Shown here piece by piece: positions 9,918 through 40,031 of a stretch of DNA of 42,084 bases (its first letter is position 1; the number at the start of each line of letters is the position of its first letter). The stretch covers positions 1 through 42,084 of the forward strand of contig JBGSWY010000345.1 of NCBI GenBank assembly GCA_041751715.1. Direction: 5' to 3'. The DNA is from Burkholderiaceae bacterium. Its GTDB lineage: Bacteria > Pseudomonadota > Gammaproteobacteria > Burkholderiales > Burkholderiaceae_F. The notes beneath the pieces are model-generated. The model was not told the origin of the DNA and made no database searches. It saw only the letters and a program-made list of their open reading frames with translations. Both the position numbers and the translations under genes were made by a program.

Positions 9918-9986
9918 CATGCAAGCTGACGCTCAGCCGCTGACCCATGCTCGCCACCCGGTTGCGCTCGAGACGACTGCCAGGCA

Positions 9987-11192: not shown

Positions 11193-11197
11193 GTCCC

Positions 11198-15331: not shown

Positions 15332-16644
15332 AAATCAGCATCTTCGGCCTCGGATATGTGGGCAGCGTTTCGGCGGCCTGCCTGGCGCGTGACGGCCACG
15401 ATGTACTGGGCGTGGATCTGAATCCGCAAAAGCTCGCATTGCTGCGGTCGGGCAAGGCGCCGATCGTCGAAGATGGAATTCAGGAGCTCACGCGCGCTGC
15501 GGTGCAGTCGGGCCGTCTGCAAGTGACCGACGATGCTGCTGGCGCGATTGCCGAGACCGACCTGTCGTTCATCTGCGTCGGCACGCCATCGTCGTCGAAC
15601 GGTTCGCAGGATCTGTCGGCAGTCGTGCGCGTGGCCGAAGCGATCGGCGCTGCGCTCGCGCGCAAGCGAGCGTTTCACACGGTGGTGCTGCGCTCGACCG
15701 TCGCACCGGGGACTGCGCTCGACCTAGTGCGTCCGGCGCTCGAATCCACGAGCGGCAAGCGCTCCGGCGCTGACTTCGGGCTGTGCTTTCAGCCCGAGTT
15801 TTTGCGCGAAGGCAGTTCGATCAAGGACTATGACCATCCGCCGTTCACGCTGGTCGGTGGAGATTCACCCGATTCGATCGAAGTGTTGCGAAAAATTTTC
15901 GGGCATTTGCCGTGCGACTTCATCGCGACCGACATTCGCACGGCGGAAGCGCTAAAGCTGGTATGCAATGCCTTTCACGCACTGAAAATCACCTTCGCCA
16001 ATGAAGTGGGCCGCATTGCCGGTGCGCTCGAGATCGACGGTCGGCAGATCATGTCTTTGGTATGCCGCGACACGCGACTGAATATCTCACCCGCCTACAT
16101 GAAGCCGGGCTTTGCGTTCGGCGGGTCGTGCCTCCCTAAAGACCTGCGCGCGCTGACGTACCTCGGTCGAGCGCGCGATGTGGAAACTCCGGTGCTGAGC
16201 AGCATTCTGCCGAGCAATCAGATTCATATCGACAAAGTGGTCGAGCGCGTGCTGGCCGACAAGCGCCGGCGCGTCGGAATGTTGGGGCTGAGCTTCAAGC
16301 CGGGCACCGACGATCTGCGTGAAAGCCCGCTCGTGACGTTGGCTGAGCGCCTGTTGGGTAAGGGCTTGCGGCTGTCGATCTACGACGCCGACGTCAGTTT
16401 GTCGCGACTGATCGGAGCCAACAAGCAGTACATCGATGATGCTATTCCGCACCTGGGCGAATTGTTGACCGCGAGCGCTGAAGAAACGATCGAGGACGCG
16501 GACACCGTGATCGTCGGGCACTCCCTTCCCTCGGTCTGGGAAAGTCTGTACGCGCATGGCACGCGCGCGCAACTTGTGATCGACCTGGCCGGCAATGGCG
16601 ATCGCACGCGCATTTCATCGGACTACTGGGGCGTGTGTTGGTAA
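15328..16644 (+). CDS. Nucleotide-sugar 6-dehydrogenase, best resembling GDP-mannose 6-dehydrogenase (AlgD-like)
   Basis: MKISIFGLGYVGSV NAD fold, FICVGTP, NPEFLREGS-like QPEFLREGSSIKDY, catalytic-Cys motif GFAFGGSCLPKDLRALTY, LGLSFKPGTDDLRESP. The C-terminus ...GVCW parallels my recollection of AlgD end to end. The start ATG overlaps the upstream stop (ATGA). Confidence 0.75.
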   Translation: MKISIFGLGYVGSVSAACLARDGHDVLGVDLNPQKLALLRSGKAPIVEDGIQELTRAAVQSGRLQVTDDAAGAIAETDLSFICVGTPSSSNGSQDLSAVVRVAEAIGAALARKRAFHTVVLRSTVAPGTALDLVRPALESTSGKRSGADFGLCFQPEFLREGSSIKDYDHPPFTLVGGDSPDSIEVLRKIFGHLPCDFIATDIRTAEALKLVCNAFHALKITFANEVGRIAGALEIDGRQIMSLVCRDTRLNISPAYMKPGFAFGGSCLPKDLRALTYLGRARDVETPVLSSILPSNQIHIDKVVERVLADKRRRVGMLGLSFKPGTDDLRESPLVTLAERLLGKGLRLSIYDADVSLSRLIGANKQYIDDAIPHLGELLTASAEETIEDADTVIVGHSLPSVWESLYAHGTRAQLVIDLAGNGDRTRISSDYWGVCW

Positions 16645-18652: not shown

Positions 18653-19952
18653 CGGGCGAGCGCGTCGGGGCGCGCCCCGGCACCTGGTCTTGAACCGGTG
18701 CTGGGCTCTCGCTGCGAACGACATGCCACGTGACGACCAGCGCGATCATCAGGAAGTACGGCATGTCCCAGTAGGCAAGGTTGAGAAACATGCCGCCGAC
18801 GAAGTACCCCACTAAGCTCACCTGAATCATCACCGCCAGCCAGTACGCCCACTTGGACTCCGGAACATCGCGCGTGCGTTTGATGATGCGACGGCTCAAC
18901 TGCCACGTCAGTATCCAGAAGATCAGGAACAATGCGAGCCCGACGAACCCATGCTCGCCCAGCACCTGAAAGTAAATGCTGTGGGCCGAGTGGGTCAGGT
19001 CATAGTCCGGAAAGTAGCGGCGGAAGACTTCCTGCGTATACGGCTCGAAACCGCCGCCTACCAGCGGCCGGTCGACCGCCAGGTTGTACAACATCGTCCA
19101 CGTATTGAGGCGGCCCAGGGCCGAGGCGTCCTGCTCATATTCGCCGATCGAGCTCATTCGCTCTCCCCATTCCGGCGGGATGAACGGGTAAAAAGCGATA
19201 CCGAACAAGAGCACGGCCAGCCCCAGCCAGATCTTGTGTTTCGACTTGAGCCATAAGAAGCCGAACATCGCGATGATCGCGAGGAAGCCCCCCCTCGAGT
19301 AACTGCCGATCACGCATACCACGCACAACACGATCGACACGACGATCGCGGCACGCATCCAGCGCCTGGTGGACATGATGTAAAGGTAGGCGAACAGCGG
19401 GATCGTCATGATCACCGCGAGCGCAAGTGCATTGTTATCGGAGATGAACGATTCGGGCGGCCCCCAGACCAGGAACTCGCCGCCGCTCGCCAGCGTAAAC
19501 GCGCCGCCCTTGACGCCGAAAAAGCCGACCGAAAAAACGATGATCAATATCAGCCACATCACGTGCCCGCGCTTGTACAGCGTAATTAATGCGAGGAATG
19601 TGACGAACAGAATTTTTACCACCCGCTCGAGCATTTCGACAGCTCGCTCGGGCTCGAGCGCGAAAAGTGTGGTCAAGCACATCCAGCCAACGAACGCGAG
19701 CAACACCCAGGTTGCTGCGCCGCCTTTCAATTGACGCGGCTCCCGCGTGAGAAAAAGCGCTATGACTGTGGTGACCGCGACGACGAACGCGAACGGAAAC
19801 GTGTAAGCGAATCCCCAAGCGGCGCGATGTGGGTTCATCAGGCTTAACCAGACCCAGAAGAAGATACCGACCGCAGGGTTACGCAGGATGAACGGAATCC
19901 CGCCGGCTACGATCAGAAACATTGCGATGTCGCGCATGCCGTCGATTATCAA
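18639..19952 (-). CDS. O-antigen ligase/Wzy-like polytopic membrane protein (exosortase-A-associated putative O-glycosylation ligase type)
   Basis: About 10 predicted TM segments. GSYSRGGFLAI and AHSIYFQVLGEHGFVGL follow the Wzy_C/O-antigen-ligase pattern, with a large loop (EYEQDASALGRLNTW). Confidence 0.75.
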   Translation of the reverse strand: MIIDGMRDIAMFLIVAGGIPFILRNPAVGIFFWVWLSLMNPHRAAWGFAYTFPFAFVVAVTTVIALFLTREPRQLKGGAATWVLLAFVGWMCLTTLFALEPERAVEMLERVVKILFVTFLALITLYKRGHVMWLILIIVFSVGFFGVKGGAFTLASGGEFLVWGPPESFISDNNALALAVIMTIPLFAYLYIMSTRRWMRAAIVVSIVLCVVCVIGSYSRGGFLAIIAMFGFLWLKSKHKIWLGLAVLLFGIAFYPFIPPEWGERMSSIGEYEQDASALGRLNTWTMLYNLAVDRPLVGGGFEPYTQEVFRRYFPDYDLTHSAHSIYFQVLGEHGFVGLALFLIFWILTWQLSRRIIKRTRDVPESKWAYWLAVMIQVSLVGYFVGGMFLNLAYWDMPYFLMIALVVTWHVVRSESPAPVQDQVPGRAPTRSPVISS

Positions 19953-21787
19953 TCCATCTTGAACGTGGGAGCGTGCCGCTCAAGCCAGTGTTCTAGCATC
20001 ATCAACACCCACACCATCTCGCCGTAAAAGCCCGAATGTTCGCGCAGGCGATTTGAAAATAGATCGTGCACCAGCTCACGACGAATGATTCCACGCTCGG
20101 CCAGCCGCGCGAGTGAATCGGAGGCAAACCGGGCCAGCGCTTCGTCCCGCACAAGCCACGGTCCGAATGGCAGTCCGAAGCCGTGTTTTTTCTTGCGAAT
20201 GACTTGCTCCGGAAGAAAATCACGCAGCGCGTCCTTGAAGAAATATCTCAGCGTGAGGCCGCGAACCTTCATCGATGCCGGAAGGCTAAGGGAAAAGTCG
20301 AGCAGTTTGTCATCGAGAAACGGGAATCCGACCGCCTGTTTTGCCAGTTGCGCGGTGAGCCTGACCTTCGGCAAATCGCTGTCGGTCAGCGTAAAGCGCC
20401 AGTCGTAAGCGAGCATTCGGTTGACGATCGATTGTGCTCGGTTCACGTGGTAGACCTCGCGCTGCAGCGTGCGCGGCTCGGTGCTGTCAACTCGGCCCAG
20501 GAGCGTCGACGTGAACACTGAACTGGCGCCAAAGCGATCGAGCAGGTTATAAGACTCCATACGCTCGGGCATCGGCATGCGAGCCTGCTCGACATACCGG
20601 CCCAGCTTCCTGATCCCCGGAATATCGCGTGCGCCGTCGGGTCCGAGCAGCCAAGGTTCGACCGCGCGCCTGCGGAGCAGGGGGGGGATTGCATCATAGG
20701 CACCGAACACTTTCTGGCGTGCATATCGGGTGTTGCCACCGAACAGCTCGTCCCCGCCGTCGCCGGCCAGAAGCTTTTCAACGCCATGCTCGTGCGCAAG
20801 GCGAGCACAGTAGTAAGCCGGAAGTGCCGATGAATTGCCGAACGGTTGATCGTAGTGCGAGGCGACGCGTGGAATCGCGCGCACCAGCTCGTCCGGAGTC
20901 AAGTAGTGTTCGTGCAGCTTGGCGTTGAAATGCTTGGCTGCGAGGCGTGCATAAGACATTTCATCGTATCCGCTCGCCTCGAAGCCGATCGAGAAGGCGT
21001 CGACGGGCTTGTCCGTCGCGAGCGCCAGGTGCCCGACCACGGTCGAACTATCGGTGCCGCCGCTCAAGAACGCCCCGATGCGCGGCGTCGTTGTTTCCCT
21101 TTCAACCGATTGTCGAAGCAGTGTGCGAAATCGCTCGCGTTCGACTCTGAGGTTGAATGTTTTCTTCTCACTGAACGCCGGCTGCCAGGTCGGGCTCAAG
21201 TGCAAGCCGCGTGAGTTGAACGAAAGCTGTGTGGCCGCCTGCAGCCGCTGAACCCCGCGAAAGATCGTGCGCGGCGCCGGGACGACGTGAAAGTAAACGT
21301 AGTTAAAGATCGCCTGCAGGTCGATCTCGCGCCGGGCTGCGTGCCCCACGGCGTCGGCCCGATCGGAAAACTCGAACCTTGAACCTTGGACCGACCAGCA
21401 GAGGGGAATTACTGCAAAGCGATCGGTTACCAGCGTAACGCTGCCCTGCGTCAAGTCGATGTGAACAACTGCAAAGCGGCCGCGCAGCGGCTCGAAATTC
21501 GGAACGCCGCTGCCGCCCTGTGCAAGGCGCACGACCTCTTCGGCCGTTAGCGCGCGCATATCCTCGTCACGCGGCTCACCGAACACTGCCGTGACGCTGC
21601 GGTCGGCAACGTGAACCTGGCCGCAATTCGATTGCAGCTTCATCGAGAACGCGGGCGCGGATACGACGCTGTGTCCTGCCGCCGTTTCATGCACCGGCGC
21701 GCTTGCCGGATGTCTCGATGCAAGTCCGTGATCGAACCAGCCACAGACTGCCGGCGCCGCGCGGTCATCCGACAAGAGCGACACCAC
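19949..21787 (-). CDS. Asparagine synthase-family protein with a degenerate N-terminal glutaminase domain
   Basis: The synthetase half is intact (FLSGGTDSS PP-loop, LAGDGGDELFGGNTRY). The N-terminal half lacks the M-C start and the RGPD, RRLSI and NGEIYN motifs found in the two paralogs. The ORF opens with GTG at 21787. Confidence 0.75.
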   Translation of the reverse strand: MVSLLSDDRAAPAVCGWFDHGLASRHPASAPVHETAAGHSVVSAPAFSMKLQSNCGQVHVADRSVTAVFGEPRDEDMRALTAEEVVRLAQGGSGVPNFEPLRGRFAVVHIDLTQGSVTLVTDRFAVIPLCWSVQGSRFEFSDRADAVGHAARREIDLQAIFNYVYFHVVPAPRTIFRGVQRLQAATQLSFNSRGLHLSPTWQPAFSEKKTFNLRVERERFRTLLRQSVERETTTPRIGAFLSGGTDSSTVVGHLALATDKPVDAFSIGFEASGYDEMSYARLAAKHFNAKLHEHYLTPDELVRAIPRVASHYDQPFGNSSALPAYYCARLAHEHGVEKLLAGDGGDELFGGNTRYARQKVFGAYDAIPPLLRRRAVEPWLLGPDGARDIPGIRKLGRYVEQARMPMPERMESYNLLDRFGASSVFTSTLLGRVDSTEPRTLQREVYHVNRAQSIVNRMLAYDWRFTLTDSDLPKVRLTAQLAKQAVGFPFLDDKLLDFSLSLPASMKVRGLTLRYFFKDALRDFLPEQVIRKKKHGFGLPFGPWLVRDEALARFASDSLARLAERGIIRRELVHDLFSNRLREHSGFYGEMVWVLMMLEHWLERHAPTFKMD

Positions 21788-21797
21788 CTTTGCAGCG

Positions 21798-22961
21798 TTA
21801 CCGGGCGAGGCGTTGAAACGCGCCGGGACTTAACGGTGTCAATTGCGTCAATCCGGGCAACTCGACCGAAGCGGCCGCGTGTCGATACTCGCGCGTTGGT
21901 AGATCGTTCTTCTTGAAGGTGCTGACGGCGCCCGAAGAGCCGGCGAGCTTGCTGCCGGGGTGAAGCCGATAGTCGAACTGCGCCGGATTGACGAAGTCAT
22001 CCAAGCGTGCCTGAACATTGTTCTTGACCACCGCCGGCGCCTTCATATCGAGTTCGCCGCGCCCGACCATGATGTTATTGGTGATTACCGCCTCGGCCGG
22101 GCCGGAACGAACCGAAATGAAGGCGCCACCCTGCGATCGATCGTTGACGAGCGTGTTGAAAGCGATGTGCGCATGATTGACCGGCCAGCGATAACCTTCG
22201 GCGCCAAAGGAAACCAGCACCGGGTTTTCGGTCTGGTTACCCTGCTGAATCAGGTTGCCGATTGCTCTTAAGGCGCCTCCGTTCGGAAGATCCAGCTCGT
22301 AGCTCGACGAGCCGCCTTCGCCGGTCAGGCGGCTGTATAAAACCGATGTTGCCTTGGCGCGGCTTTTCAGCAAGTGGCCGGTGCGAGAGCGCGCGAAGTA
22401 GCTGCCGGTGACTTCGAGCACGGCGATCGTTCCGGCATACAAATTGTGACTCTGCCCATCTCCTGCGCCGTTGTTCACAAACGTCGAGTCGGCGACGCGC
22501 AGTTCGATGCTCGAATCGTTCGACGTGAGAATGCCGTTCTCGTTGTCTTCGAACAGGCATTTAATAATCGTCAGCCGGCCACCTTCGAGCCGAATCCCCG
22601 CGCCGTTGAGATCCGGCACGCGCGCGCCGGAAAAGGCGAGATTCTCGATCGTTGTGTTACTGCCGCGGACGACGAAAATTCCTTTTCCTTCTGCCATCGC
22701 TACGCCGTCGGCTACGACCCGCGGGCGTTCGCCGATGCCACGAATCACCAGATTGTTTTGTGTCCATACGGCAACGTCGCGCCGATAGTCGCCCGCCTCG
22801 ACTTCGACGACGTCACCGTCGCGCGCAATCTCGGCGGCCTTTTGGAGCGTGCGAATCTCGTGTGAAGGGCCGACGCGGATGATGTTCGACGCCGCGGCGG
22901 CAAGCGGCACGCTCGAGACAACGAAAGCGATCAGCGAAACAAATCGGCGCATGTGTTGCAT
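21798..22961 (-). CDS. Secreted right-handed parallel beta-helix protein (candidate polysaccharide lyase/epimerase)
   Basis: Signal peptide MQHMRRFVSLIAFVVSSVPLAAAAS. Repetitive beta-helix coils (IENLAFSG, IIKCLFEDNENGILTSN, VADSTFVNNGAGDGQSHNLYAG, AIGNLIQQGN, ITNNIMVG). Confidence 0.65.
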   Translation of the reverse strand: MQHMRRFVSLIAFVVSSVPLAAAASNIIRVGPSHEIRTLQKAAEIARDGDVVEVEAGDYRRDVAVWTQNNLVIRGIGERPRVVADGVAMAEGKGIFVVRGSNTTIENLAFSGARVPDLNGAGIRLEGGRLTIIKCLFEDNENGILTSNDSSIELRVADSTFVNNGAGDGQSHNLYAGTIAVLEVTGSYFARSRTGHLLKSRAKATSVLYSRLTGEGGSSSYELDLPNGGALRAIGNLIQQGNQTENPVLVSFGAEGYRWPVNHAHIAFNTLVNDRSQGGAFISVRSGPAEAVITNNIMVGRGELDMKAPAVVKNNVQARLDDFVNPAQFDYRLHPGSKLAGSSGAVSTFKKNDLPTREYRHAAASVELPGLTQLTPLSPGAFQRLAR

Positions 22962-22994: not shown

Positions 22995-24137
22995 ATGCGG
23001 CGCGGTCGATGCAGCTCAGGATTCGTATTGTCACCATTGGTCATTCTCGGCGCTTCGATTACCGGCCTTGCTGTAGCAAGAGACGCGCGCGCGCGGGGGC
23101 TAAATCCGGTCGTTGTCGATTCGGACGACGGGCCAGCGTTCCATAGCCGATGGGTAACGGCGGTCAACGTCGTTTCGATGACCCAGGCAGCGATGCGTGA
23201 CCGCATTCTGAGCCTCGGCGGCGCGGAAGCCGCATTGATTGCGACGTCCGATCATTGGATTCGTTTTGTGATCGATCATCGGGCGAACCTGACTTCGGCG
23301 TACAAAACCATCGTGCATCCCGACAACGCCACGCTCGAAGTTTGCCTAGACAAGATGGCGTTTGCGCAATGGTGCAATGAAGCGGTGCTGCCGTGTCCGC
23401 AAGCCTGGGTGCCGGGCCGTCAGGCGCGTCCGGCATCCATGCGCTTTCCGTTTTTGTTACGGCCTGTGCGAACGCTGCACGGCCGCCGCGAGCTTGATTT
23501 GCCCAAGGCGGTAGAGGCACAGGACGAGGCGGAGCTTGCGCACTGGCTGTCTCAATTCGAGGTTAATGGTGTGGTCGCGCTGGTCAGCGAATCGCTGCTG
23601 GGGCGGGCACTCGAGCAATACTCGGTGCCGTTTGCCCGGTGCGATGGCCAAACGCTGATGTTTACCGCGCGCAAAGTCCGTCCTGCCGCGCGGCTTTGTC
23701 AGACCGGCACCTGCGTCGAACTGTGCGTCGACGAGCGCGCCGAGCAGTTAGGCAGGGCTGCTATTGAACGCCTGGCCTACTTCGGAATTGGCGAAGTCGA
23801 GATACTGCGCGACACGCACAGCGGACGCGACTACCTGATAGAGATTAACGCCAGACCCTGGTTGCAATATGCGCTGGCACCGGCGTCGAACCACGATTTC
23901 CTGGGGCTCGTGTTGGGGCTTTTGCCGTCCAGCAGGAAACCTGCGGTGCGTGCAGGAAAGACCTGGATCGATCTGTATCAGGATCTTTTCGTCGCCTTTT
24001 CCCGCTCGATCGGCGTGGTTCGCCACGGGCGTCTCGGACTCTTTGCGTATCTTCGATCGCTTGTTCGCTGCAATGTGTTCGCGCTGTTCGATTGGCGCGA
24101 TCCGCGTCCGTTTCTGCAGTCCTTGCGGCATCGATGA
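22995..24137 (+). CDS. ATP-grasp family carboxylate-amine ligase-like protein
   Basis: Pre-ATP-grasp N-terminus LVILGASITGLAVARDARARGLNPVVVD. C-terminal GIGEVEILRDTHSGRDYLIEINARPW (E-x-N metal-binding motif). The start may instead be the in-frame TTG at 23028. Confidence 0.7.
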   Translation: MRRGRCSSGFVLSPLVILGASITGLAVARDARARGLNPVVVDSDDGPAFHSRWVTAVNVVSMTQAAMRDRILSLGGAEAALIATSDHWIRFVIDHRANLTSAYKTIVHPDNATLEVCLDKMAFAQWCNEAVLPCPQAWVPGRQARPASMRFPFLLRPVRTLHGRRELDLPKAVEAQDEAELAHWLSQFEVNGVVALVSESLLGRALEQYSVPFARCDGQTLMFTARKVRPAARLCQTGTCVELCVDERAEQLGRAAIERLAYFGIGEVEILRDTHSGRDYLIEINARPWLQYALAPASNHDFLGLVLGLLPSSRKPAVRAGKTWIDLYQDLFVAFSRSIGVVRHGRLGLFAYLRSLVRCNVFALFDWRDPRPFLQSLRHR

Positions 24138-25387
24138 TGCGTAAAGTGTTGATGCTCGCTTTTCACTTTCCGCCATTCGCGCAAAGCAGCGGCAGCATTC
24201 GAACGCTCAGCTTTGTGCGCCATCTGCCCGAATACCACTGGCAACCGATTGTCCTGACTGCACGCTCGCACGTTTATCCGGAAGTCGATGACCGCAGTCT
24301 GGAAAGGGTGCCGCAACGAGCGCGCATCGTGCGTGCGGCAGGTTTGGATATTGCCCGCCATGTTGCCATCGCCGGGCGTTATCCGACGTGGCTCGCGACA
24401 CCCGACCGCTGGAATACGTGGGCCGCGGCCGCAATCATTGCGGGACTCACTTGCATTCGGCGCCACAAGCCTGCGGTTCTTTGGGCCACGTTTCCGATTG
24501 CGAGTGCGCTGGTGGCCGCGGTGGTGCTGCACAGATTGACCAGGATCCCGCTGGTTCTGGACCTGCGCGATCCTATGGTGTACGAGGGCTGGCCTGAAGA
24601 GCGGTGGATGCGGAGCACGTACCGCTGGATCGAGAAGCGGGCGGTCCGCATGGCTGCGGCTGTCGTCGTCACAACGCCAAGCGCGCGGCGTCTTTATGTC
24701 GAACGGTATGTCGATGTGCCGGCGGCGCGCTTCAGCATCATGGCGAACGGCGTTGACTGTGCGATGGATATCGACCCCCCGCTCCATCCTCGCGAGCGTA
24801 GCGAGCCGATCGTATTGGTTCACAGCGGACTGATGGAGATACCGGACAGGGATCCAACGGCGTTTTTCGAAGCGATCGCGCAAATGCGCAAACGAGGCGA
24901 TATCACGGACGGTTCATTGCGCGTGATACTGCGTGCAACCGGCCGCGATGAAGAATATCGTAGGCAGATCGCCTTGGTTGGAATCGATCGCATTGTTTTT
25001 GTGGAAAAGCGAATCTCGCATTCCGAAGCCATGGCCGAGATGCAGCGCGCCGATGGTCTGCTGTTATTTCAGGGAGCCCAGTGCAATCGGCAAATTCCCG
25101 CCAAGGCTTATGAGTATCTGGCCTGCCGGCGTCCGATCATCGGCCTGCTCGATGCGGCGGGCGATACGCATCAGCTGGTCGCGGATCAATGGAAAGCACC
25201 GTATGTCGCCGACATGAGTTCGGCGGCGGCAATCGCCGACGTGCTTCGAACATTCCTGGGTGATTTTCGCAGGCGCGATGTGTCGATTCCGGACGCAAGC
25301 TTGATTGAACGACACTCGCGAGCACTTGGCGCCCGCGAGCTCGCGGCATTGCTCGACGAAGTGGTGGGCAAGGTTGCGCGTGTTTAG
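24134..25387 (+). CDS. GT-B-fold glycosyltransferase-like protein (divergent GT4/WcaI-like)
   Basis: KVLMLAFHFPPFAQSSGSIRTLSF, PLVLDLRDP, ANGVD, and QIPAKAYEYLACRRPIIGL. The ATG at 24134 overlaps the upstream stop (ATGA). Confidence 0.6.
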   Translation: MMRKVLMLAFHFPPFAQSSGSIRTLSFVRHLPEYHWQPIVLTARSHVYPEVDDRSLERVPQRARIVRAAGLDIARHVAIAGRYPTWLATPDRWNTWAAAAIIAGLTCIRRHKPAVLWATFPIASALVAAVVLHRLTRIPLVLDLRDPMVYEGWPEERWMRSTYRWIEKRAVRMAAAVVVTTPSARRLYVERYVDVPAARFSIMANGVDCAMDIDPPLHPRERSEPIVLVHSGLMEIPDRDPTAFFEAIAQMRKRGDITDGSLRVILRATGRDEEYRRQIALVGIDRIVFVEKRISHSEAMAEMQRADGLLLFQGAQCNRQIPAKAYEYLACRRPIIGLLDAAGDTHQLVADQWKAPYVADMSSAAAIADVLRTFLGDFRRRDVSIPDASLIERHSRALGARELAALLDEVVGKVARV

Positions 25388-26777
25388 TTCCGCGAAGCGC
25401 TTCGCCAAGAAACTGGCGGTCGACGCTGTGCATGCGCGCAACGAGCGTGAGCGCGCCCGATTGGAGCAGACCCACGGCATCGCTCCCTCTGAATGGGGCG
25501 CGACCATCGGCGATGCAGGCAACCTGGTGATCGATGGGGTCGACATTGCGCAACTTGCCGGCGACTACGGTACGCCGCTGCATGTGGTCAGCCGGTCACG
25601 GTTGCTTGCGGACTACGAGCGCTTCGAGAGCAGCTTCAAGCGCCTGTATCCGAACATCGCGGTCGGGTATTCGTACAAGACGAATCCCCTGCCCGGCGTG
25701 ATCAAAGTACTGCACGGCGCCGGCGCGCTGGCTGAGGTCATTTCCCACTTCGAGCTGTGGCTCGCGCTCGAGCTTGGCGTGCCCGCGGAACAAATCATCT
25801 TCAACGGTCCGGCCAAAACCCGCGACGCGATCGAGCTAGCCGTGAATCGCGGCGTCGGCATGATCAACGTCGATGGTCTGAGCGAGATCGACGAGATCGC
25901 ACAGGCCGCGCGCACTGCGCAGCGTGCTCAGAGCGTCGGAGTACGCGTGATCACTTCCGTCGGCTGGTCGTCGCAATTCGGCCTCGGCATTGCATCGGGC
26001 CAGGCGATGGAGGCTTTCCGCCGGATTCGACAGCACGATCGTCTGGCTCCAACCGGACTGCACTTTCACCTCGGCACCGGTATCAGGGATGTGGCGATCT
26101 ACCTGCAGGCAGTGCGCGAGATGCTCGAATTCGCGCGCGCGGTGCGGGCGGAACTGGGAGTCGAGATCACGCAGCTGGATCTCGGCGGTGGCTTTGGCGT
26201 GCCCACCGTGCGCCCGTTCACCGAATGGGAAATGCGATTGATGCAAAACGGCCGCCCGCCGGGCCCGGTCGATGTCGCGGCTGCGGCACGGCCAGATGAT
26301 TACGCGCGCGAAATCGTCGCGCTGCTACGACGATATTACTCAGACGTCGCCCCCCCTATGGTGATCTTCGAACCGGGCCGGGCTCTTACAAGCAGCGCGC
26401 AATGCCTGGTACTGCGAGTGCTCGCCATCAAGGAAAACCGCAGCGTCATTCTCGACGGCGGAAAAAATATCGCGATGCCGACCGGCTATGAAATGCATGA
26501 GTTGCTTGCCGTGACGGGCGCGGCGGACCCGCGCGACAGCCGCTACGACTTCTACGGCCCGCTGTGCCATCCGGGCGATCTTCACTTTCAATCGAAAGCG
26601 TTCCGCGCGCTGCAACCGGGCGATCTGGTGGCAATCATGGACGCCGGCGCGTACTTCATTCCCAATCAGATGAATTTCTCTAATCCGCGACCCGCTGCTG
26701 TGCTGGTGAACGACGGCGAGATCTCACTGTTGCGGCAGCGCGAGTCGTTTGAAGATATAGTTCGGCTTGACCAATAA
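25380..26777 (+). CDS. PLP-dependent decarboxylase, Orn/DAP/Arg decarboxylase fold (exosortase-A-associated decarboxylase type)
   Basis: PLP-Lys motif GYSYKTNP, HFHLGT, LDLGGGFGVP, IFEPGRALTS, and YGPLCHPGD. The start is uncertain (GTG 25380 chosen; the ORF is open from 25305). Confidence 0.85.
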   Translation: MFSSAKRFAKKLAVDAVHARNERERARLEQTHGIAPSEWGATIGDAGNLVIDGVDIAQLAGDYGTPLHVVSRSRLLADYERFESSFKRLYPNIAVGYSYKTNPLPGVIKVLHGAGALAEVISHFELWLALELGVPAEQIIFNGPAKTRDAIELAVNRGVGMINVDGLSEIDEIAQAARTAQRAQSVGVRVITSVGWSSQFGLGIASGQAMEAFRRIRQHDRLAPTGLHFHLGTGIRDVAIYLQAVREMLEFARAVRAELGVEITQLDLGGGFGVPTVRPFTEWEMRLMQNGRPPGPVDVAAAARPDDYAREIVALLRRYYSDVAPPMVIFEPGRALTSSAQCLVLRVLAIKENRSVILDGGKNIAMPTGYEMHELLAVTGAADPRDSRYDFYGPLCHPGDLHFQSKAFRALQPGDLVAIMDAGAYFIPNQMNFSNPRPAAVLVNDGEISLLRQRESFEDIVRLDQ

Positions 26778-26832: not shown

Positions 26833-27003
26833 CTTCGGGCCGAGCGTAGAAGTTCCCCACCATCCGCATCACGTCATGCATTAGGCCGATTGCGTAATTG
26901 CTCGCTTCTCTTCTATGGCGTTAAATGCAGCGCAGCAAAGGGCAGGCGGTTACGCGCTGCTAAAAATATGCAAACAAATGTGCCGCTGTAAAAAAGGGAG
27001 TGC

Positions 27004-27381
27004 ATGAAACAGGTGGGGCGCCGTACAGTTTTGCGTTTCGGGTTCGGGGCGGGAGCGCTATTGCTCCTAGGCTGCGATGTTAGTGAACAAGATCCGTCTG
27101 CAGCAGAGGCTCCGGCACCACCTCCGCCTGCGCTATCACCACCTCCGGCGTCAGCCGCCTGGGTGGTCAATCCTCCGTCGTTCGCCGTCGGTAGTGGCTC
27201 GACATTCAATCTGGCCACCACGTTGCCGGCGGGCGTTGCTCGAGGAGGAGCTTTCGGCGTCAGTTCCGCCGGGGCCACTCTTCCCACCGGAATGACGTTG
27301 ACGAAGCCGGGAATACTGTCGGTGGGATCTGCCACAGTGGGCAGCGTCACCGGCGTCGTCTTCACTTACGCATCTCCCTGA
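27004..27381 (+). CDS. Small Tat-signal lipoprotein with Pro-rich linker and Ig-like (putative He_PIG-type) domain
   Basis: GGGAG Shine-Dalgarno 5 nt upstream. GRRTVLRFGFGAGALLLLGC combines a twin-Arg motif, an h-region and a lipobox Cys. Then APAPPPPALSPPPA, then FNLATTLPAGVARGGAFGVSSAGATLPTGMTLTKPGILSVGSAT. Confidence 0.65.
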   Translation: MKQVGRRTVLRFGFGAGALLLLGCDVSEQDPSAAEAPAPPPPALSPPPASAAWVVNPPSFAVGSGSTFNLATTLPAGVARGGAFGVSSAGATLPTGMTLTKPGILSVGSATVGSVTGVVFTYASP

Positions 27382-27472: not shown

Positions 27473-29551
27473 ATGCAGCGACGTCAGTTTTTAAAGGGTA
27501 CATCCGTTGCGCTTGCCGCAACCTTGACAGGTTGCGGTGGTGGTGGCGGTGAAAGTGCTGCGGCATCCAGTGCGCCGCCTCCGGCGCCGCCCGTCCCCGC
27601 TCCAGCCCCGGCGCCCGGCGCCGGACCTGCTGCGGGAGGCCTGCCGACGCTGACCCTGCATCCAACGCAAACCGGCACCGGGCCCTACATTGCGGCCGTG
27701 CTGCCACTGGAGGGTTTGGTTCCGGCGGCCCAGAGCCTCGACTCGCCAGACGATCCAAATGTGCGTTCCACCGTCGTCTCCAGATGGCCCGACGGCTCGG
27801 CATCGGTGGTCGTAGTGGCGGGTGAAACAAGCGTGACGCTCGGCACGTCCAGACAAATCCGCTTGCGCGCTGCCGCTGTCAACGCAACGCCGTTGAACGC
27901 GGCGCGAGTCGGTCAGCTCGTCTCGAATGTGACGGTCAACTGCGGCGCCCTCGGCTCGGCGGTCTTGAACGACTTCGCAACGCCGTCGAAAATCTGGTGG
28001 GCCAACGAGCGTGTCATCTGCTGCCGATATCGCGCCCCGGTCGGAGCGCACCCGACCCTGGAAGCAGTGGTCGACATTCACGCGTTTTCGTCGAATCGAG
28101 CGCTGGTCGAGGTGGTGGTCGAGAACTGCAAGATGGTAACTGCGACACCGACGCAGCCGGCCGCGGCTGCTTACACGGCAGCAGTGACGGTTAACGGCGC
28201 GGCGGTGACGAATGTTCAGTCCGCAAACGCTCCTGGCGGAACGCACCAAGCATTTCGTGCCTGGTACGCATCGAGCTGGGTCGGTGGCGACCCCGGCATT
28301 GACGTCACGCAGGACACTGGCTCGATGCAGGCGCATCCGCTGTTTTTCCGCGTGTGGCAAGGCGGCGGCAGTATGGCGGCGTACGCGGCCGATACCTATC
28401 AGCCATGGAGTGTCGGTCGCCACCCCGCAAGCAATATGGGCGGCGGCGGTGACTCCGCGTTCATCGGCCCGTTGCCCAAATGGGAAGTCCAGTATCTGCA
28501 AACGGGCGACAACCAAGCTCGACGCGCGGTGATTGCCTCAGCGCTGTCAGTGTTGAGCTTTAACGTCAACTATCGAGACGCGGGCACCGGACTTGTGCCG
28601 ACGTTCGATCAATTGACAAACAAGAATCAGCAGCAATTCGGATCCGACGCAGCCAGAGCGTGGCCGCACAGCACAGGCGCCGAGCCCTCGTGGGAGGTTG
28701 CACATCATCCGGCAGCAGGTTTGATGGCGTTCATGTGCCGCCCGTCGCCGGTATTCATCGAGATCGCGCAGAAAATCGCCGTGTGGAACGGAACCTGGTC
28801 GAGCGACAACGGCACCTTCGGGACCTACTATGAGACGCGCGGCAAGGCATGGGGCGTGCGGAGTCTGACGCATGCCATTTTTTTGACGCCGGATAGCGAC
28901 AACTGGAAGCAGCCGGCGCGTTCCGCGCTGTTTCGCAATTCGCAGTTGCTGAAAAGCTTTCAGGACGACCCCAAGTCCGTGCTCGGATTTGTGTGGGACT
29001 TCTCGCCTTCATTCGTGCAGAACTACGGCGGCTCCGGATTTACTCAACCGCTGTGGGAGCACCATTATCTAGTCACCGAGCTGCACAAGGCGGCGAGCGC
29101 AAGGGTACTTAGCGGTGCGGAGCAATCGGCCCTGACTGCGCTTGCCGACTGGGCAGCGGCCCAACCGGTTCGATACATCAACGAATCCACCGGCGGTGAA
29201 TGGCGAATTTTTTACTACGTGACGCCGGCCGGCCGCAGTGGGACAACGATAGATTCGTTGCCCACCTGGGGCCAACAGTTCGCGTGGAGCTACAGCGACG
29301 CACCGCCGCCGGTGTCGGGCCCGTGGATGAACGGCAGCGGGACATCTTATGCGTCCGCCAGTGTGGAAAACAACGCAGGCGCTTATTACCCGTCGTACTT
29401 CTGGGCGGCACTCGTGGCCGCAGTTGAGCGCGGCGTGGCCGGCGCGGATGCGGCCTGGAGCAAGGTCACGACCAACGTAACTAATCTGTCAGCGTGGAGC
29501 GCGGGGTTCGGTCCCGAGCCGCGCTGGGGTGCATATCCAAGGAATAAATAA
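27473..29551 (+). CDS. Large Tat-signal lipoprotein of unknown function (candidate polysaccharide-active enzyme)
   Basis: MQRRQFLKGTSVALAATLTGC is a near-consensus Tat motif (RRxFLK) plus a lipobox, followed by a Gly/Pro/Ala linker. The N-terminal beta-rich part (VVSRWPDGSASVVVVAG) is followed by a W/H-rich, helix-like C-terminal part. I recognise no named family with confidence. Confidence 0.6.
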   Translation: MQRRQFLKGTSVALAATLTGCGGGGGESAAASSAPPPAPPVPAPAPAPGAGPAAGGLPTLTLHPTQTGTGPYIAAVLPLEGLVPAAQSLDSPDDPNVRSTVVSRWPDGSASVVVVAGETSVTLGTSRQIRLRAAAVNATPLNAARVGQLVSNVTVNCGALGSAVLNDFATPSKIWWANERVICCRYRAPVGAHPTLEAVVDIHAFSSNRALVEVVVENCKMVTATPTQPAAAAYTAAVTVNGAAVTNVQSANAPGGTHQAFRAWYASSWVGGDPGIDVTQDTGSMQAHPLFFRVWQGGGSMAAYAADTYQPWSVGRHPASNMGGGGDSAFIGPLPKWEVQYLQTGDNQARRAVIASALSVLSFNVNYRDAGTGLVPTFDQLTNKNQQQFGSDAARAWPHSTGAEPSWEVAHHPAAGLMAFMCRPSPVFIEIAQKIAVWNGTWSSDNGTFGTYYETRGKAWGVRSLTHAIFLTPDSDNWKQPARSALFRNSQLLKSFQDDPKSVLGFVWDFSPSFVQNYGGSGFTQPLWEHHYLVTELHKAASARVLSGAEQSALTALADWAAAQPVRYINESTGGEWRIFYYVTPAGRSGTTIDSLPTWGQQFAWSYSDAPPPVSGPWMNGSGTSYASASVENNAGAYYPSYFWAALVAAVERGVAGADAAWSKVTTNVTNLSAWSAGFGPEPRWGAYPRNK

Positions 29552-30730
29552 ATGGCACTTCTTACTTCTTCGCCAGCGACGCTTTCGGTCACATCGTTTC
29601 CGTATTCATTGCCTCCGCCCGGTCAAGCGATGTTGATTGGCGCCAACTCGCCGGACAGCGTCAGGCCGTCGACGCACACGACGTACGAGTGGAACTATGC
29701 GCTGTTCTTCTTCTATGGCGGTGGCACCTTCGTCGACGATTATTCGGCCGGCGGAGCCTACGTAATCGCCGGCTCGGGAGGGCATGCCGTGCCGCCCAAC
29801 TTTGGTGGCTGCTTATTCGACTTCGCTGATGCGACGTGGAAGCGGGTGGATAACGCCAATGGCATGCCGTGGATAAACCGGGATTTGAACGCTCCCGGGT
29901 TTTCGGGAGAAATCAATAGCGTCGGCGAGATCAACTGGCCTGGCGTATCCGCCGGCATCCCGGCTCCGTCGCACCTGTACGGCAACGTGTTGGCGCTGTC
30001 GGCAGCCAACGGAGGCGGCAGCCGAGGGTCGGCACTGATCCTGCGCTCAATGGCGGCCGGATATAGCTCGAACTACGGTTCCGGATACGCGCATCGGTTC
30101 GATGTTGCCACCGGCCTGTGGACTCGCCAATCGACCAATGCATCGATTGGAAACAGCGGCTTTCGCACCGCGTGCTACGACGGGGTAACGAATCGCTACT
30201 ACATGATCCGTTATGAGTTGCACGAAAGCTCCAACCTGGACTATCTGGATGGTGCCGACTGGACCTGGAAAACAGTCAGCATCGCGACTCCGGCCGCTGT
30301 CGGCAATAACAAGTCAGCGTTCATCGATGACTCGCGGCGGCTGCTGATCGTACAGACGTCGGCCGGAAGGCTGCGCGCGCTTGACTTGAACAACATGGGT
30401 GCAGGGTTCGTAACCCTCAGAACGGTTGGCAATCTTCCGCCCGATAATCAGTCGCAGTGGCACTTGTATCCGGCCGATGGCTGCTGGTACACGTACATAG
30501 GCAACGGCGGCAACAGCTTGCACAAGATTCAGCCGCCCGCGGCGAACCCGCTCACGGAAACATGGACGGTAAGCACCGTTTCGATCGGCGGGGCGGCTCT
30601 GGCGTCGCAGCCAACCGAAGCGATTCAGAACGGCTCGGTTCATAACACAAGATTTTTTTATGTCCGGCCGATCGGATGCTTTGCATGGATCGCCGGCGAA
30701 GGCAATAAGGTCGCCATCCTTAAGCCTTGA
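29552..30730 (+). CDS. Hypothetical protein, beta-propeller/Kelch-like by sequence texture, no signal peptide
   Basis: The ATG abuts the upstream TAA with zero spacer. Repeated G-G...W/Y strand-like segments (FFFYGGGTFVDDY, YVIAGSGGH, ATGLWTRQ, RYYMIRY, CWYTYIGNGGNS, FFYVRPIGCFAWIAG). The N-terminus MALLTSSPATLSV is not signal-like. Confidence 0.5.
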   Translation: MALLTSSPATLSVTSFPYSLPPPGQAMLIGANSPDSVRPSTHTTYEWNYALFFFYGGGTFVDDYSAGGAYVIAGSGGHAVPPNFGGCLFDFADATWKRVDNANGMPWINRDLNAPGFSGEINSVGEINWPGVSAGIPAPSHLYGNVLALSAANGGGSRGSALILRSMAAGYSSNYGSGYAHRFDVATGLWTRQSTNASIGNSGFRTACYDGVTNRYYMIRYELHESSNLDYLDGADWTWKTVSIATPAAVGNNKSAFIDDSRRLLIVQTSAGRLRALDLNNMGAGFVTLRTVGNLPPDNQSQWHLYPADGCWYTYIGNGGNSLHKIQPPAANPLTETWTVSTVSIGGAALASQPTEAIQNGSVHNTRFFYVRPIGCFAWIAGEGNKVAILKP

Positions 30731-32824: not shown

Positions 32825-32935
32825 ATTCCATGCGAGCCGAAGGCGGATGCGCGATATTGTAGTGTTCATGGACAACGTTTCCGGGTGTGCCTTCGTTTAC
32901 GAAATACTCGTAGCACGAGTCGGACCAGCTATCTG

Positions 32936-34891
32936 ATGTGCGGTTTCACTGGATTTCTGACTTTCGACGGGACTGAACACAGCACGCTTGTGCACATCGC
33001 CGGCGCAATGGCGCAAACGCTGGTGCACCGCGGCCCGGACGATTCAGGGACGTGGGTCGACCCGGCGTGCGGCATCGCGCTCGCCTTTCGCCGTCTGTCG
33101 ATCATCGACCTGTCACCCGCCGGCCATCAGCCGATGCGCTCGGCCGACGGCCGCTACGTGATCGTATTCAATGGTGAGATTTACAACTTTCTCGAGTTGC
33201 GCAGGGAACTGGAGCAGAGCGGCGAGGCGCCGGCGTGGCGCGGCCATTCCGACACAGAAGTCTTGTTGGCTTTGATTACGTCGCGCGGGCTCGATAGAGC
33301 GCTCGAGCAGTCGATCGGGATGTTCGGGTTTGCGCTATGGGATACGCACAGTCGCACATTGCACCTCGCCCGCGACCGGATAGGCGAGAAGCCGCTGTAT
33401 TACGGATGGGCAGGCCGCACTTTTCTATTCGGGTCCGAGCTGAAAGCGCTGCGAGCGCATCCGCACTGGAGCGCTGAGATCGATCGCGGCGCATTGGCGC
33501 TGTTCATGCGATACAACTACGTTCCAGCGCCGCATTCGATCTACCGCGGAGTATCGAAGGTGCTGCCCGGGAATACCCTGACGCTGCCGTGGCTGTCACG
33601 TGAACCCATCATCAAATGTTATTGGTCGGCGCGCACTGTGGCAGAGCGCGGCTTTTCCGATCCTTTCCGAGATGGCGAGGCGGCCATTGGCACTGCGCTT
33701 GACGCGCTCCTGCGCGACGCGATCGGCAAGCAAATGGTGGCCGATGTTCCGCTCGGCGCATTTCTATCGGGCGGTATAGACAGCTCCACCGTGGTGGCTT
33801 TGATGCAGGCGCAGAGCATGCGGCCGGTCAAGACGTTCACGATCGGTTTTCACGAGCAGGAGTACAACGAGGCGGTGAACGCCGCCGAAGTGGCGCGGCA
33901 CCTCGGCACCGATCACACCGAGCTCTATGTAACGCCGAGCGAGGCAAGGGAAGTCATACCCAGACTGCCCACGATCTACGATGAGCCGTTTTCAGACTCT
34001 TCGCAAATCCCCACGTTTCTGGTGGCGCAGTTGGCCCGCTCGCAAGTGACGGTTGCTTTGTCCGGCGATGGCGGCGATGAATTGTTTGCCGGCTATACAC
34101 GTTATGCGTTCGGGCAGCGGCTATGGAACAAGCTGTCGCGCTTGCCTCCTGCCGTTCGACGTGCGCTCGCCACCTCCGTCAAGAAGGTGTCGGTCGAGCG
34201 CTGGAGCATGATTGCCAAGCCGATGCTCGCTGTTGCCCCGCGGCGCTACCGGATTGGACTGGCGGGTGACAAGATTCACAAGCTGGCGGACGTGCTGGCG
34301 CACGAGACTCTCGATTCGCTTTATCGCGATCTGGTCTCGCACTGGAAGCCGCCACTGGACATCGTACTGGCCGACAACGAGCCGACGACGATGCTCGATT
34401 CGGCCGGCGATCTTGCAATCCGCGATCCGGTGGCCAGGATGATGCTGCTCGACCTCGTGACTTATCTGCCCGATGACATTCTGGCGAAGGTCGATCGTGC
34501 GGCGATGGCGGTGAGCCTGGAAACCCGCATTCCGCTGCTCGATCATCGAGTGGTCGAATTCGCAGCGAGAATTCCACTCGCGGCCAACCTGAATCGCGAT
34601 GGTGCCAAGGGGATTCTGCGCAACGTGTTGTACCGGTATGTGCCCAGGGCGTTGGTCGATCGTCCGAAAATGGGCTTCGCGGTGCCGATCGACAGTTGGC
34701 TGCGTGGGCCGCTGCGCGAGTGGGCCGACGATCTGCTTGATCCGGCTCGCCTGCGCCGCGAAGGATATCTGAAGCCGGAACTCATTCAACAGCGGTGGCA
34801 GGAGCACAAGAGCGGGCAGCGCAACTGGCACTATCCGTTGTGGGATGTACTGATGTTTCAATCGTGGCTGCAAAGCACGCACGGACGGTAA
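32936..34891 (+). CDS. asnB: Asparagine synthase (glutamine-hydrolysing) family amidotransferase
   Basis: The ATG at 32936 gives an MCGF Ntn nucleophile. Also HRGPDDSG, FRRLSIIDL, FNGEIYNF, SDTEV, FLSGGIDSS and LSGDGGDELFAGYTRY. Confidence 0.9.
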   Translation: MCGFTGFLTFDGTEHSTLVHIAGAMAQTLVHRGPDDSGTWVDPACGIALAFRRLSIIDLSPAGHQPMRSADGRYVIVFNGEIYNFLELRRELEQSGEAPAWRGHSDTEVLLALITSRGLDRALEQSIGMFGFALWDTHSRTLHLARDRIGEKPLYYGWAGRTFLFGSELKALRAHPHWSAEIDRGALALFMRYNYVPAPHSIYRGVSKVLPGNTLTLPWLSREPIIKCYWSARTVAERGFSDPFRDGEAAIGTALDALLRDAIGKQMVADVPLGAFLSGGIDSSTVVALMQAQSMRPVKTFTIGFHEQEYNEAVNAAEVARHLGTDHTELYVTPSEAREVIPRLPTIYDEPFSDSSQIPTFLVAQLARSQVTVALSGDGGDELFAGYTRYAFGQRLWNKLSRLPPAVRRALATSVKKVSVERWSMIAKPMLAVAPRRYRIGLAGDKIHKLADVLAHETLDSLYRDLVSHWKPPLDIVLADNEPTTMLDSAGDLAIRDPVARMMLLDLVTYLPDDILAKVDRAAMAVSLETRIPLLDHRVVEFAARIPLAANLNRDGAKGILRNVLYRYVPRALVDRPKMGFAVPIDSWLRGPLREWADDLLDPARLRREGYLKPELIQQRWQEHKSGQRNWHYPLWDVLMFQSWLQSTHGR

Positions 34892-39077: not shown

Positions 39078-39245
39078 GGATGCCCTATGTCGGCGAAATC
39101 ACCGTACTTTGCGCCGCTTATCTCGGGCGACCGCGGTTCGTTCATGTTTGATCTAATGGTCCGGTCCAATCCGCAAGAGCATCTCGATGCAGAAACAATG
39201 CGCATCTCCGCCTGAAGCCGCGCGCTGCGCCAAGTGCGGGCCATC

Positions 39246-40022: not shown

Positions 40023-40031
40023 CGAGGGGCC

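Follow-up and report, generated by a model that had tools for sequence, protein, structure and literature searches.

What does an ATP-grasp enzyme encoded beside a relative of diaminopimelate (DAP) decarboxylase (LysA) do to a bacterial exopolysaccharide (EPS)? The question is raised by contig JBGSWY010000345.1 of a Burkholderiaceae bacterium (assembly GCA_041751715.1), analysed here as one window of 42,084 nt, in which three genes at 22995–26777 encode an ATP-grasp enzyme, a glycosyltransferase-like (GT-like) protein and a pyridoxal phosphate (PLP)-dependent decarboxylase. The window is an XrtA/PEP-CTERM-type EPS locus by its NCBIfam markers; a scan of its ~33 open reading frames (ORFs) against NCBIfam and Pfam families identified at least 10 marker genes, in order the chain-length determinant TIGR03007, tyrosine kinase TIGR03018, outer-membrane protein TIGR03016, ATPase TIGR03015, WecB, deacetylase TIGR03006, FemAB-like protein TIGR03019, glycosyltransferases TIGR03087 and TIGR03088 and amidotransferase TIGR03108, with an O-antigen-ligase-like protein (TIGR03097) further downstream and a GT4 glycosyltransferase, a family CE4 deacetylase, a nucleoside diphosphate (NDP)-sugar dehydrogenase, another glycosyltransferase and a methyltransferase set among them. 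From the sequence comparisons below, the core of the cassette, the ATP-grasp enzyme with the LysA-like decarboxylase, is best explained as a conserved tailoring module of such loci, and the pair probably attaches an amide-linked amine to a sugar.

The three genes (Table 1) are tightly packed. The start codon of the GT-like gene shares bases with the TGA stop of the ATP-grasp gene in an ATGA at 24134–24137, and the decarboxylase start, a GTG at 25380, falls in an 8-nt overlap with the GT-like stop (GTGTTTAG at 25380–25387), so that the cassette reads as translationally coupled by its start/stop overlaps. Both overlaps had been described in an initial annotation of this DNA, together with the three enzyme classes and the peptide motifs YLIEINARPW, YSYKTN, GGGFGV, EPGR and CHPGD; the sequence bears out the overlaps, all motifs are present in the translations, and the classes are correct, by Pfam for the decarboxylase and the GT-like protein and by fold match for the ATP-grasp enzyme. 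The mechanically called GT-like ORF opens at a TTG at 24092, its 417 aa being counted from the ATG at 24134, while the public gene call for the decarboxylase (P0121) likewise has 465 aa and the N-termini of orthologues align to the GTG start. The public call for the ATP-grasp gene (P0002) is, at 314 aa, shorter than the 380-aa ORF; a start at 22995, or at a TTG ~33 nt downstream, is preferred because 18 homologues share, without variation, the N-terminal Rossmann-like segment that the shorter call drops.

Association between the two core enzymes was followed by scanning one genome per species with an alignment of the ATP-grasp enzyme, which gave 80 loci (cited by L number where they need to be told apart) onto which all window proteins were mapped; counts rest on ~42 non-redundant loci with an ATP-grasp enzyme at least 34% identical, from Burkholderiales, Steroidobacteraceae, Zoogloeaceae (with one isolate, Cognatazoarcus halotolerans HKLI-1, locus L043), Chromatiales, Ectothiorhodospiraceae and others. 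A decarboxylase orthologue (46–77% identity) lies within 10 kb of the ATP-grasp gene at 25 of the ~42 loci and 11 kb off at one more, and the GT-like gene stands directly downstream of the ATP-grasp gene at ~14–17. The pair occurs in at least seven gene orders, among them ATP-grasp–GT-like–decarboxylase, adjacent genes with either the decarboxylase or the ATP-grasp gene leading, convergent genes, and an ATP-grasp gene with an asparagine synthetase (AsnB)-like gene and then the decarboxylase gene on the opposite strand. Such repeated shuffling argues for a functional rather than accidental linkage, and the co-occurrence in many gene orders and lineages backs the proposal of the initial annotation that the two enzymes work together. 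Viewed from the decarboxylase side, two of the three contexts sampled contain a confirmed ATP-grasp orthologue within 6 kb, in one case overlapping by 4 nt; the remaining context has, beside a GT-like gene, a 407-aa protein that matches no Pfam family and is probably the ATP-grasp enzyme. The pair can be found alone, as a two-gene unit among housekeeping genes in L037 and probably also in L039, which has no other matches to window genes, or in a compact cluster (L034) that runs dehydrogenase, transglutaminase-like protein, GT4, GT4, protein of unknown function, Wzx, decarboxylase, ATP-grasp. Two Arg-rich plus-strand ORFs considered as neighbours of the pair in L037 are spurious, the real neighbours being the housekeeping genes on the other strand.

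Other occupants of these loci deserve mention. In loci of the Steroidobacteraceae type the place of the GT-like gene is taken by a PaaK/CapK-like adenylate-forming ligase (450–460 aa; motifs SGGSTG and YETGD) that adjoins the ATP-grasp or decarboxylase gene (L002 11145–12497, L017 11201–12571, L086 11481–12863); it also occurs in some Burkholderiales loci, and the window has no homologue. These 450–460-aa neighbours were considered as diverged GT-like proteins and rejected as such on their identity as PaaK/CapK-like ligases. Several loci from metagenome-assembled genomes (L006 11131–12350, L031 8553–9966, L088 8154–10004) carry GT-like, decarboxylase or AsnB-like genes that look frame-shifted or split, which may reflect errors of assembly or a decaying module in those lineages.

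The decarboxylase is assigned by its Pfam domains (PF02784, 136.6 bits, 1.2e-39; PF00278, 43.7 bits, 3.5e-11) to the fold-type III PLP enzymes of the ornithine/DAP/arginine decarboxylase family. Its best-scoring named family is lysA (TIGR01048), of which it is not a member (241.4 bits against a cut-off of 297.9), followed by DokD (166 bits, cut-off 700), FslC (125 bits, cut-off 500) and the exosortase-A-associated decarboxylase family TIGR03099 (118.7 bits, cut-off 478.45). Because all of these scores fall below their cut-offs, the enzyme is placed by sequence in a distinct clade, nearest LysA and neither LysA nor TIGR03099. The best match in the PDB is, over the full length, LysA of Methanocaldococcus jannaschii (1twi; 177 bits); BtrK, listed among the hits as ‘L-glutamyl-[BtrI acyl-carrier protein] decarboxylase’, reaches only 96–97 bits. 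In an alignment of 23 orthologues with Escherichia coli LysA (L087) and one true TIGR03099 protein, the motifs YSYKTNP, HxHLGTG, GGGFG, EPGR and GPLCH[PST]GD are kept across the 23. The two-domain fold, PLP lysine, HxHxG, GGG, EPGR and C-x-x-x-D are features in common with LysA, FslC, BtrK and DokD, and Tyr311 of E. coli LysA is likewise retained. Unlike E. coli LysA, the window decarboxylase and the orthologues displayed have Met or Ile for Arg307 and His for Glu343 (this His of CH[PST]GD being present in all 23), together with Phe for Tyr378, invariant or near-invariant in the clade, and an insertion of ~17 residues after GGGFGVP. Arg307 (of RPxxY) and Glu343 (of CES) are the residues that we take, from LysA structures, to hold the distal end of DAP, and DAP is an unlikely substrate because both contacts are replaced.

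These features bear on the possibility that the gene is the housekeeping lysA, an outcome for which the initial annotation allowed, and lies next to the ATP-grasp gene by accident. The rank of lysA as top named family and the label ‘diaminopimelate decarboxylase’ that JGI gives to homologues speak for it, but the score is under the equivalog cut-off, the Arg and Glu of RPxxY and CES are replaced, the linkage to the ATP-grasp gene is kept in shuffled arrangements across orders of Proteobacteria, and the gene sits inside an EPS operon whose start and stop codons overlap; score, residues and context together make this account hardly credible, and it was rejected.

TIGR03099 decarboxylases usually travel with an acyl-CoA ligase, an acyl carrier protein (ACP) and hydrolases. 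Among the ~33 window ORFs scanned no match to a TIGR03098-type ligase, a carrier protein or the hydrolases of that system was found, and this, with an XrtA-type setting rich in TIGR markers, agrees with the suggestion of the initial annotation that the ATP-grasp enzyme takes the place of those partners. That suggestion does not survive the family scores given above, and a locus in which both systems are present speaks against it as well: in L033 an orthologous decarboxylase–ATP-grasp pair, whose decarboxylase scores 115.7 bits on TIGR03099, has 2.5 kb upstream of it both a genuine TIGR03098 ligase (679 bits) and a genuine TIGR03099 decarboxylase (559.2 bits). Both modules in one locus are therefore two separate, coexisting systems rather than one with swapped partners. 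Window-type and TIGR03099-type decarboxylases are moreover ~28% identical, the same as either is to E. coli LysA, and in L046 the pair adjoins an AMP-binding/PP-binding protein and a hydrolase, all of which leaves a partner replacement very improbable and membership of TIGR03099 refuted. A 406-aa ORF in L046 was also considered for TIGR03099 and rejected on its alignment, which is not that of such a decarboxylase. The two modules are alike in placing a LysA-like decarboxylase beside a carboxylate-activating enzyme in XrtA-type EPS loci; they differ in the protein family of the decarboxylase and in its partner, here an ATP-grasp enzyme (acyl-phosphate), there an adenylating ligase with a carrier protein.

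The ATP-grasp enzyme reaches the cut-off of no Pfam or NCBIfam family; the Pfam scan at E≤0.01 gave only a sub-threshold N-terminal DAO match and none to the TupA-like ATP-grasp family, and the best hit of a PDB sequence search (a carboxylase, E=0.58) is not usable alone. The assignment comes from an AlphaFold (AF2) model built from 18 homologues, with a predicted local distance difference test (pLDDT) score of 87.8, for which Foldseek returned biotin carboxylase, PurK, PurT and PylC at probability 1.0 and a template modelling (TM) score of ~0.6. Glu283, Asn285 and Arg287, the E-x-N-x-R Mg/ATP motif, align with E-M-N-T-R of methylcrotonyl-CoA carboxylase and are invariant in the 18 homologues, as are Lys120, Lys171, Lys227 and Glu267/Glu269. 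On this modelled fold the enzyme belongs to the ATP-grasp superfamily with its Mg/ATP residues intact, and it is predicted to form an amide bond. Some of its 227 homologues are named by JGI ‘predicted ATP-grasp superfamily ATP-dependent carboligase’ or ‘D-aspartate ligase’, both automatic labels. A carboxylase-type reaction through carboxyphosphate was dropped as the lead idea because the biotin carboxylase and PurK matches are generic for three-domain ATP-grasp proteins and nothing in the context suggests carboxylation.

The GT-like protein scores above the gathering cut-offs for PF13579 (44 bits) and PF13439 (36.7 bits), with its C-terminal Pfam domain (24.9 bits) under the cut-off of 27. 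A PDB sequence search gave no usable match (best E=0.025, trigger factor), and an AF2 model (pLDDT 90.5) is closest to the mycothiol glycosyltransferase MshA (3c4q; TM 0.71/0.75), with further matches to GlgM, BshA (TM ~0.70) and PimA, by which the modelled protein is certainly a GT-B fold of the GT4 type. At the EX7E site an invariant Q320-x-P322-x-K324-x-Y326-E327-Y328 (QIPAKAYEY) is found instead, the second Glu alone being kept. Glycosyl transfer is likely from the modelled fold, but this activity is not assured because EX7E is replaced and the C-terminal domain is below cut-off.

The module extends beyond three genes: an AsnB-like synthetase with a dead glutaminase domain and a CE4 deacetylase, neither of them counted in by the initial annotation, co-travel with the cassette. 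An AsnB-like orthologue lies within 10 kb of the ATP-grasp gene at ~24 of the ~42 loci and overlaps or adjoins the decarboxylase gene in L002, L012, L014, L043, L086 and L088. All of these orthologues lack the RLSIIDL and NGEIYN motifs but keep the PP-loop SGGTDSS, and an N-terminal Cys is not a conserved feature of them; the window protein scores 228.8 bits on TIGR03108 (cut-off 816.9) and is not a member. The AsnB-like enzyme is a candidate, by sequence, for a second ATP-dependent amide former, and because it often overlaps the decarboxylase gene the module may form more than one amide bond. The window carries three asparagine-synthetase paralogues (11189–13126, 19949–21787 and 32885–34891), scoring on TIGR03108 1088 bits for the true member, 557 for a full-length protein below cut-off and 229 for the one with the degenerate glutaminase domain. 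Orthologues of the beta-helix protein encoded between the AsnB-like and ATP-grasp genes and divergent from the latter adjoin the AsnB-like gene in L001, L006–L010, L031, L042 and L044.

A CE4 deacetylase gene is directly upstream of the ATP-grasp gene, often overlapping it, at ~10–12 of the ~42 loci. Abutment or overlap with the ATP-grasp start is seen in 12 locus entries (L002, L004, L012–L017, L020, L035, L043), a count that falls to ~10 without the L004/L013 duplicate and two gaps of 830 nt; in the window the CE4 gene is 7.7 kb from the ATP-grasp gene, in another operon. In one sub-clade, squalene-hopene-cyclase/GH127-like and formyltransferase-like proteins accompany the deacetylase–ATP-grasp pair (L004 6164–8235, L017 12537–14628, L088 18643–19878, L086 1–1027), and L086 encodes a fused formyltransferase and CE4 deacetylase of 530 aa. 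The dehydrogenase, called AlgD-like by the initial annotation, was named too specifically: it matches the generic NDP-sugar model, its best partial equivalogs, below cut-off, being the UDP-glucose dehydrogenases AglM and TuaD. It is a possible source of a uronic acid for the cassette, a link that we infer, and in L001, L002, L034 and L089 an orthologue is encoded close to the core pair.

Table 1. The cassette and its companion genes in the window.
Feature	Position	Strand	Basis
ATP-grasp enzyme, 380 aa	22995–24137	+	ORF list; family without curated model
GT4-like GT-B glycosyltransferase homologue, 417 aa from ATG	24134–25387	+	ORF list, Pfam, model
Fold-type III PLP decarboxylase, ornithine/DAP/arginine family, 465 aa from GTG	25380–26777	+	ORF list, Pfam
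AsnB-like synthetase, degenerate glutaminase domain	19949–21787	-	PF00733, 246 bits; glutamine amidotransferase domains below cut-off
CE4 polysaccharide deacetylase homologue	14339–15331	+	PF01522, 77 bits; TFDD, HTVNH and AYP motifs
NDP-sugar 6-dehydrogenase	15262–16644	+	TIGR03026, 378 bits
Right-handed beta-helix protein, signal-peptide-like N-terminus	21798–22961	-	PF13229, 31.8 bits; divergent from ATP-grasp

What chemistry would such a module carry out? From these folds, motifs and neighbourhoods we infer substrates, an acceptor and a step order as follows. The ATP-grasp enzyme would activate a carboxylate as an acyl-phosphate and join it to an amine, and the decarboxylase would strip the alpha-carboxylate from an amino acid, so that the final substituent on the sugar would be an amide-linked amine, that is, a decarboxylated amino acid. 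The preferred acceptor is the C6 carboxylate of a uronic acid made by the NDP-sugar dehydrogenase of the locus, with ligation presumably on a cytoplasmic, lipid-linked repeat unit; adding or extending the neighbouring sugar would next fall to the GT4-like enzyme, whose gene is translationally coupled to that of the ligase. Either the free amine may be made first, or ligation may come first and decarboxylation follow, as in other non-LysA members of the family.

Amidation of a uronic acid is made plausible by the dehydrogenase present in the window and near the pair in the four loci just named, and by analogy with the HS:2 capsule of Campylobacter jejuni (Cj1435–Cj1438). One amine of that pathway is supplied by a PLP-dependent decarboxylase, Cj1436, which has an aminotransferase-like fold, unlike the fold-type III LysA relative of the window. 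The glucuronamide precedent brought forward by the initial annotation does exist: the ATP-grasp domain Cj1438C amidates the C6 carboxylate of glucuronic acid with a small amine during polysaccharide assembly, and in Cj1438 its fusion partner is a glycosyltransferase dependent on the amidated acceptor (PMC11800379). The fused ligase–glycosyltransferase has its parallel in the ATGA-coupled ATP-grasp/GT-like pair of the window. Cj1438C is TupA-like, however, whereas the window enzyme has no Pfam ATP-grasp match and is of another lineage; the Campylobacter glycosyltransferase is a GT2 enzyme fused to its ligase, whereas that of the window is GT4-like and separately encoded; and the product is there a capsule exported by an ABC transporter, here an XrtA/PEP-CTERM EPS.

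The amide-linked-amine model with a uronate acceptor is named as a tentative preference, held from the sequence comparisons at somewhat less than even confidence, and several observations weigh against it. At ~16 ATP-grasp loci no decarboxylase lies within 10 kb, and six of a group of seven marine gammaproteobacterial loci lack one while keeping the ATP-grasp, GT-like and AsnB-like genes; the ATP-grasp enzyme is not of the TupA-like family that makes glucuronamide, its structural neighbours (carboxylases, PurK/PurT, PylC) being generic; a dehydrogenase orthologue is in range at few loci only; the AsnB-like enzyme could be the user of the decarboxylase product; and the CE4–ATP-grasp adjacency, with the ‘D-aspartate ligase’ labels, fits N-acylation of a sugar amine equally well. 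In this last alternative the GT4-like enzyme would install an N-acetyl-hexosamine, the CE4 (or a PIG-L) deacetylase would free its amine, the ATP-grasp enzyme would ligate an amino acid, for example via a side-chain carboxylate as D-aspartate ligase does, and the LysA-like enzyme would decarboxylate the exposed alpha-amino-acid head, giving for instance beta-alanyl or 4-aminobutyryl; another carboxylate would be capped by the AsnB-like enzyme. The logic is that of mycothiol and bacillithiol (MshA/MshB/MshC; BshA/BshB/BshC), in which a deacetylase is followed by ATP-dependent ligation of an amino acid onto the freed sugar amine, and whose GT4 enzymes MshA and BshA are the closest structural neighbours of the GT-like protein. 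Agreeing with it are the intact catalytic motifs of the CE4 orthologues at the ATP-grasp start, the three deacetylases and FemAB-like protein of the window, and relatives of the decarboxylase in the hit lists that act on conjugated amino acids (the N-citrylornithine decarboxylase FslC and the glutamyl-ACP decarboxylase BtrK). The thiols are nevertheless small molecules rather than polysaccharides, their ligases are not known to be ATP-grasp enzymes, they involve no decarboxylase, and the co-travelling deacetylase here is CE4 and not PIG-L; at least 12 loci with the pair have no deacetylase orthologue within 10 kb, including the compact L034, L089 and the stand-alone L037; the window deacetylase lies in a different operon; and the ligase label is an automatic annotation only. 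N-acylation, as ordinary a chemistry as uronate amidation and its main competitor, is held unlikely, and we lean slightly to the uronate reading because the deacetylase is absent from those loci that keep the pair.

Uronamide formation is a common proposal for AsnB homologues encoded in polysaccharide loci, and the decarboxylase could instead serve the AsnB-like enzyme, which would adenylate a sugar (uronic) carboxylate and couple the amine to it while the ATP-grasp enzyme performed a separate ligation. Adjacent or overlapping AsnB-like and decarboxylase genes in one operon, at the six loci named above, would suit this arrangement, as would the lost glutaminase motifs and kept PP-loop of all orthologues, which fit a nitrogen nucleophile other than glutamine-derived ammonia. 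Pairs without an AsnB-like orthologue within 10 kb (L025, L032–L034, L037, L039, L046, L089) make it improbable, and a decarboxylase with an AsnB-like gene but no nearby ATP-grasp gene was not seen in the sampled contexts. What probability the uronate, N-acylation and AsnB readings leave belongs to other or unknown functions. A more specific proposal touches the order of steps: an amino acid would first be joined by an amide to a sugar of the lipid-bound repeat unit and only then decarboxylated by the LysA-like enzyme, the ATP-grasp and AsnB-like enzymes contributing one amide each, to leave a short cationic or zwitterionic side chain on the XrtA-type EPS of floc- and biofilm-forming Proteobacteria. 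Butirosin biosynthesis offers a likeness in BtrJ/BtrK, an ATP-grasp ligase whose partner, a LysA-family decarboxylase, works once ligation has taken place; that pathway makes an aminoglycoside and needs a carrier protein, whereas no carrier protein gene is among the window ORFs scanned. As a whole the ligation-first proposal is rather doubtful; if true, its side chain might be a uronoyl-diamine or a beta-alanyl or 4-aminobutyryl amino sugar, and polysaccharide would be a kind of substrate so far undescribed among DAP-decarboxylase relatives.

Amide decoration of bacterial polysaccharides is well-known chemistry, while this combination of enzymes and the decarboxylase clade are uncharacterised. 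No paper describing the cassette was found in the literature searched, and the related PEP-CTERM cluster listed in the Rubrivivax EmbRS paper is without the decarboxylase or the ATP-grasp enzyme. By the scans made here none of the three protein families is covered by a curated hidden Markov model; all three are now defined, among them a decarboxylase that automatic annotation routinely mislabels ‘diaminopimelate decarboxylase’, and two LysA-like decarboxylase families of one locus type are told apart. EPS of the XrtA/PEP-CTERM type underlie flocculation and biofilms in bacteria of wastewater, soil and sediment, and their chemical structures are almost unknown. The charged amide-linked substituent that the module predicts would alter polymer charge, metal binding and floc cohesion, and is a specific feature for structural chemists to seek.

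Elsewhere in the locus, no exosortase (XrtA/EpsH) gene was found in the window (1–42084) by tblastn. The TIGR03087 and TIGR03088 glycosyltransferase genes are directly adjacent there (region 8664–13126), and the exosortase gene is placed between them in L015 and L016 and just ahead of the amidotransferase gene in L004. The decarboxylase gene is followed by a 700-nt gap where two candidate ORFs overlap on opposite strands, one of 125 aa (27004–27381, plus strand), whose N-terminus is twin-arginine/lipoprotein-like and whose linker is rich in Pro and Ala, the other of 150 aa (26913–27365, minus strand); neither matches any family. Beyond the gap lie two large conserved proteins without a Pfam or NCBIfam match, one of 692 aa with a twin-arginine translocation-like signal (27473–29551) and one of 392 aa (29552–30730). 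Both come after the cassette, in this order, in L001, L006 and L010 as well, and the larger is found additionally in L029 and L041 at 48% identity. At the right end (39234–41947) three genes hint, by sequence similarity, at an additional sugar pathway on the margin of the locus: one is glucose-1-phosphate cytidylyltransferase-like (225 bits, below cut-off), one encodes a PIG-L/BshB1-like deacetylase, and the third an apiosidase-like glycoside hydrolase that carries a collagen-binding-like domain.

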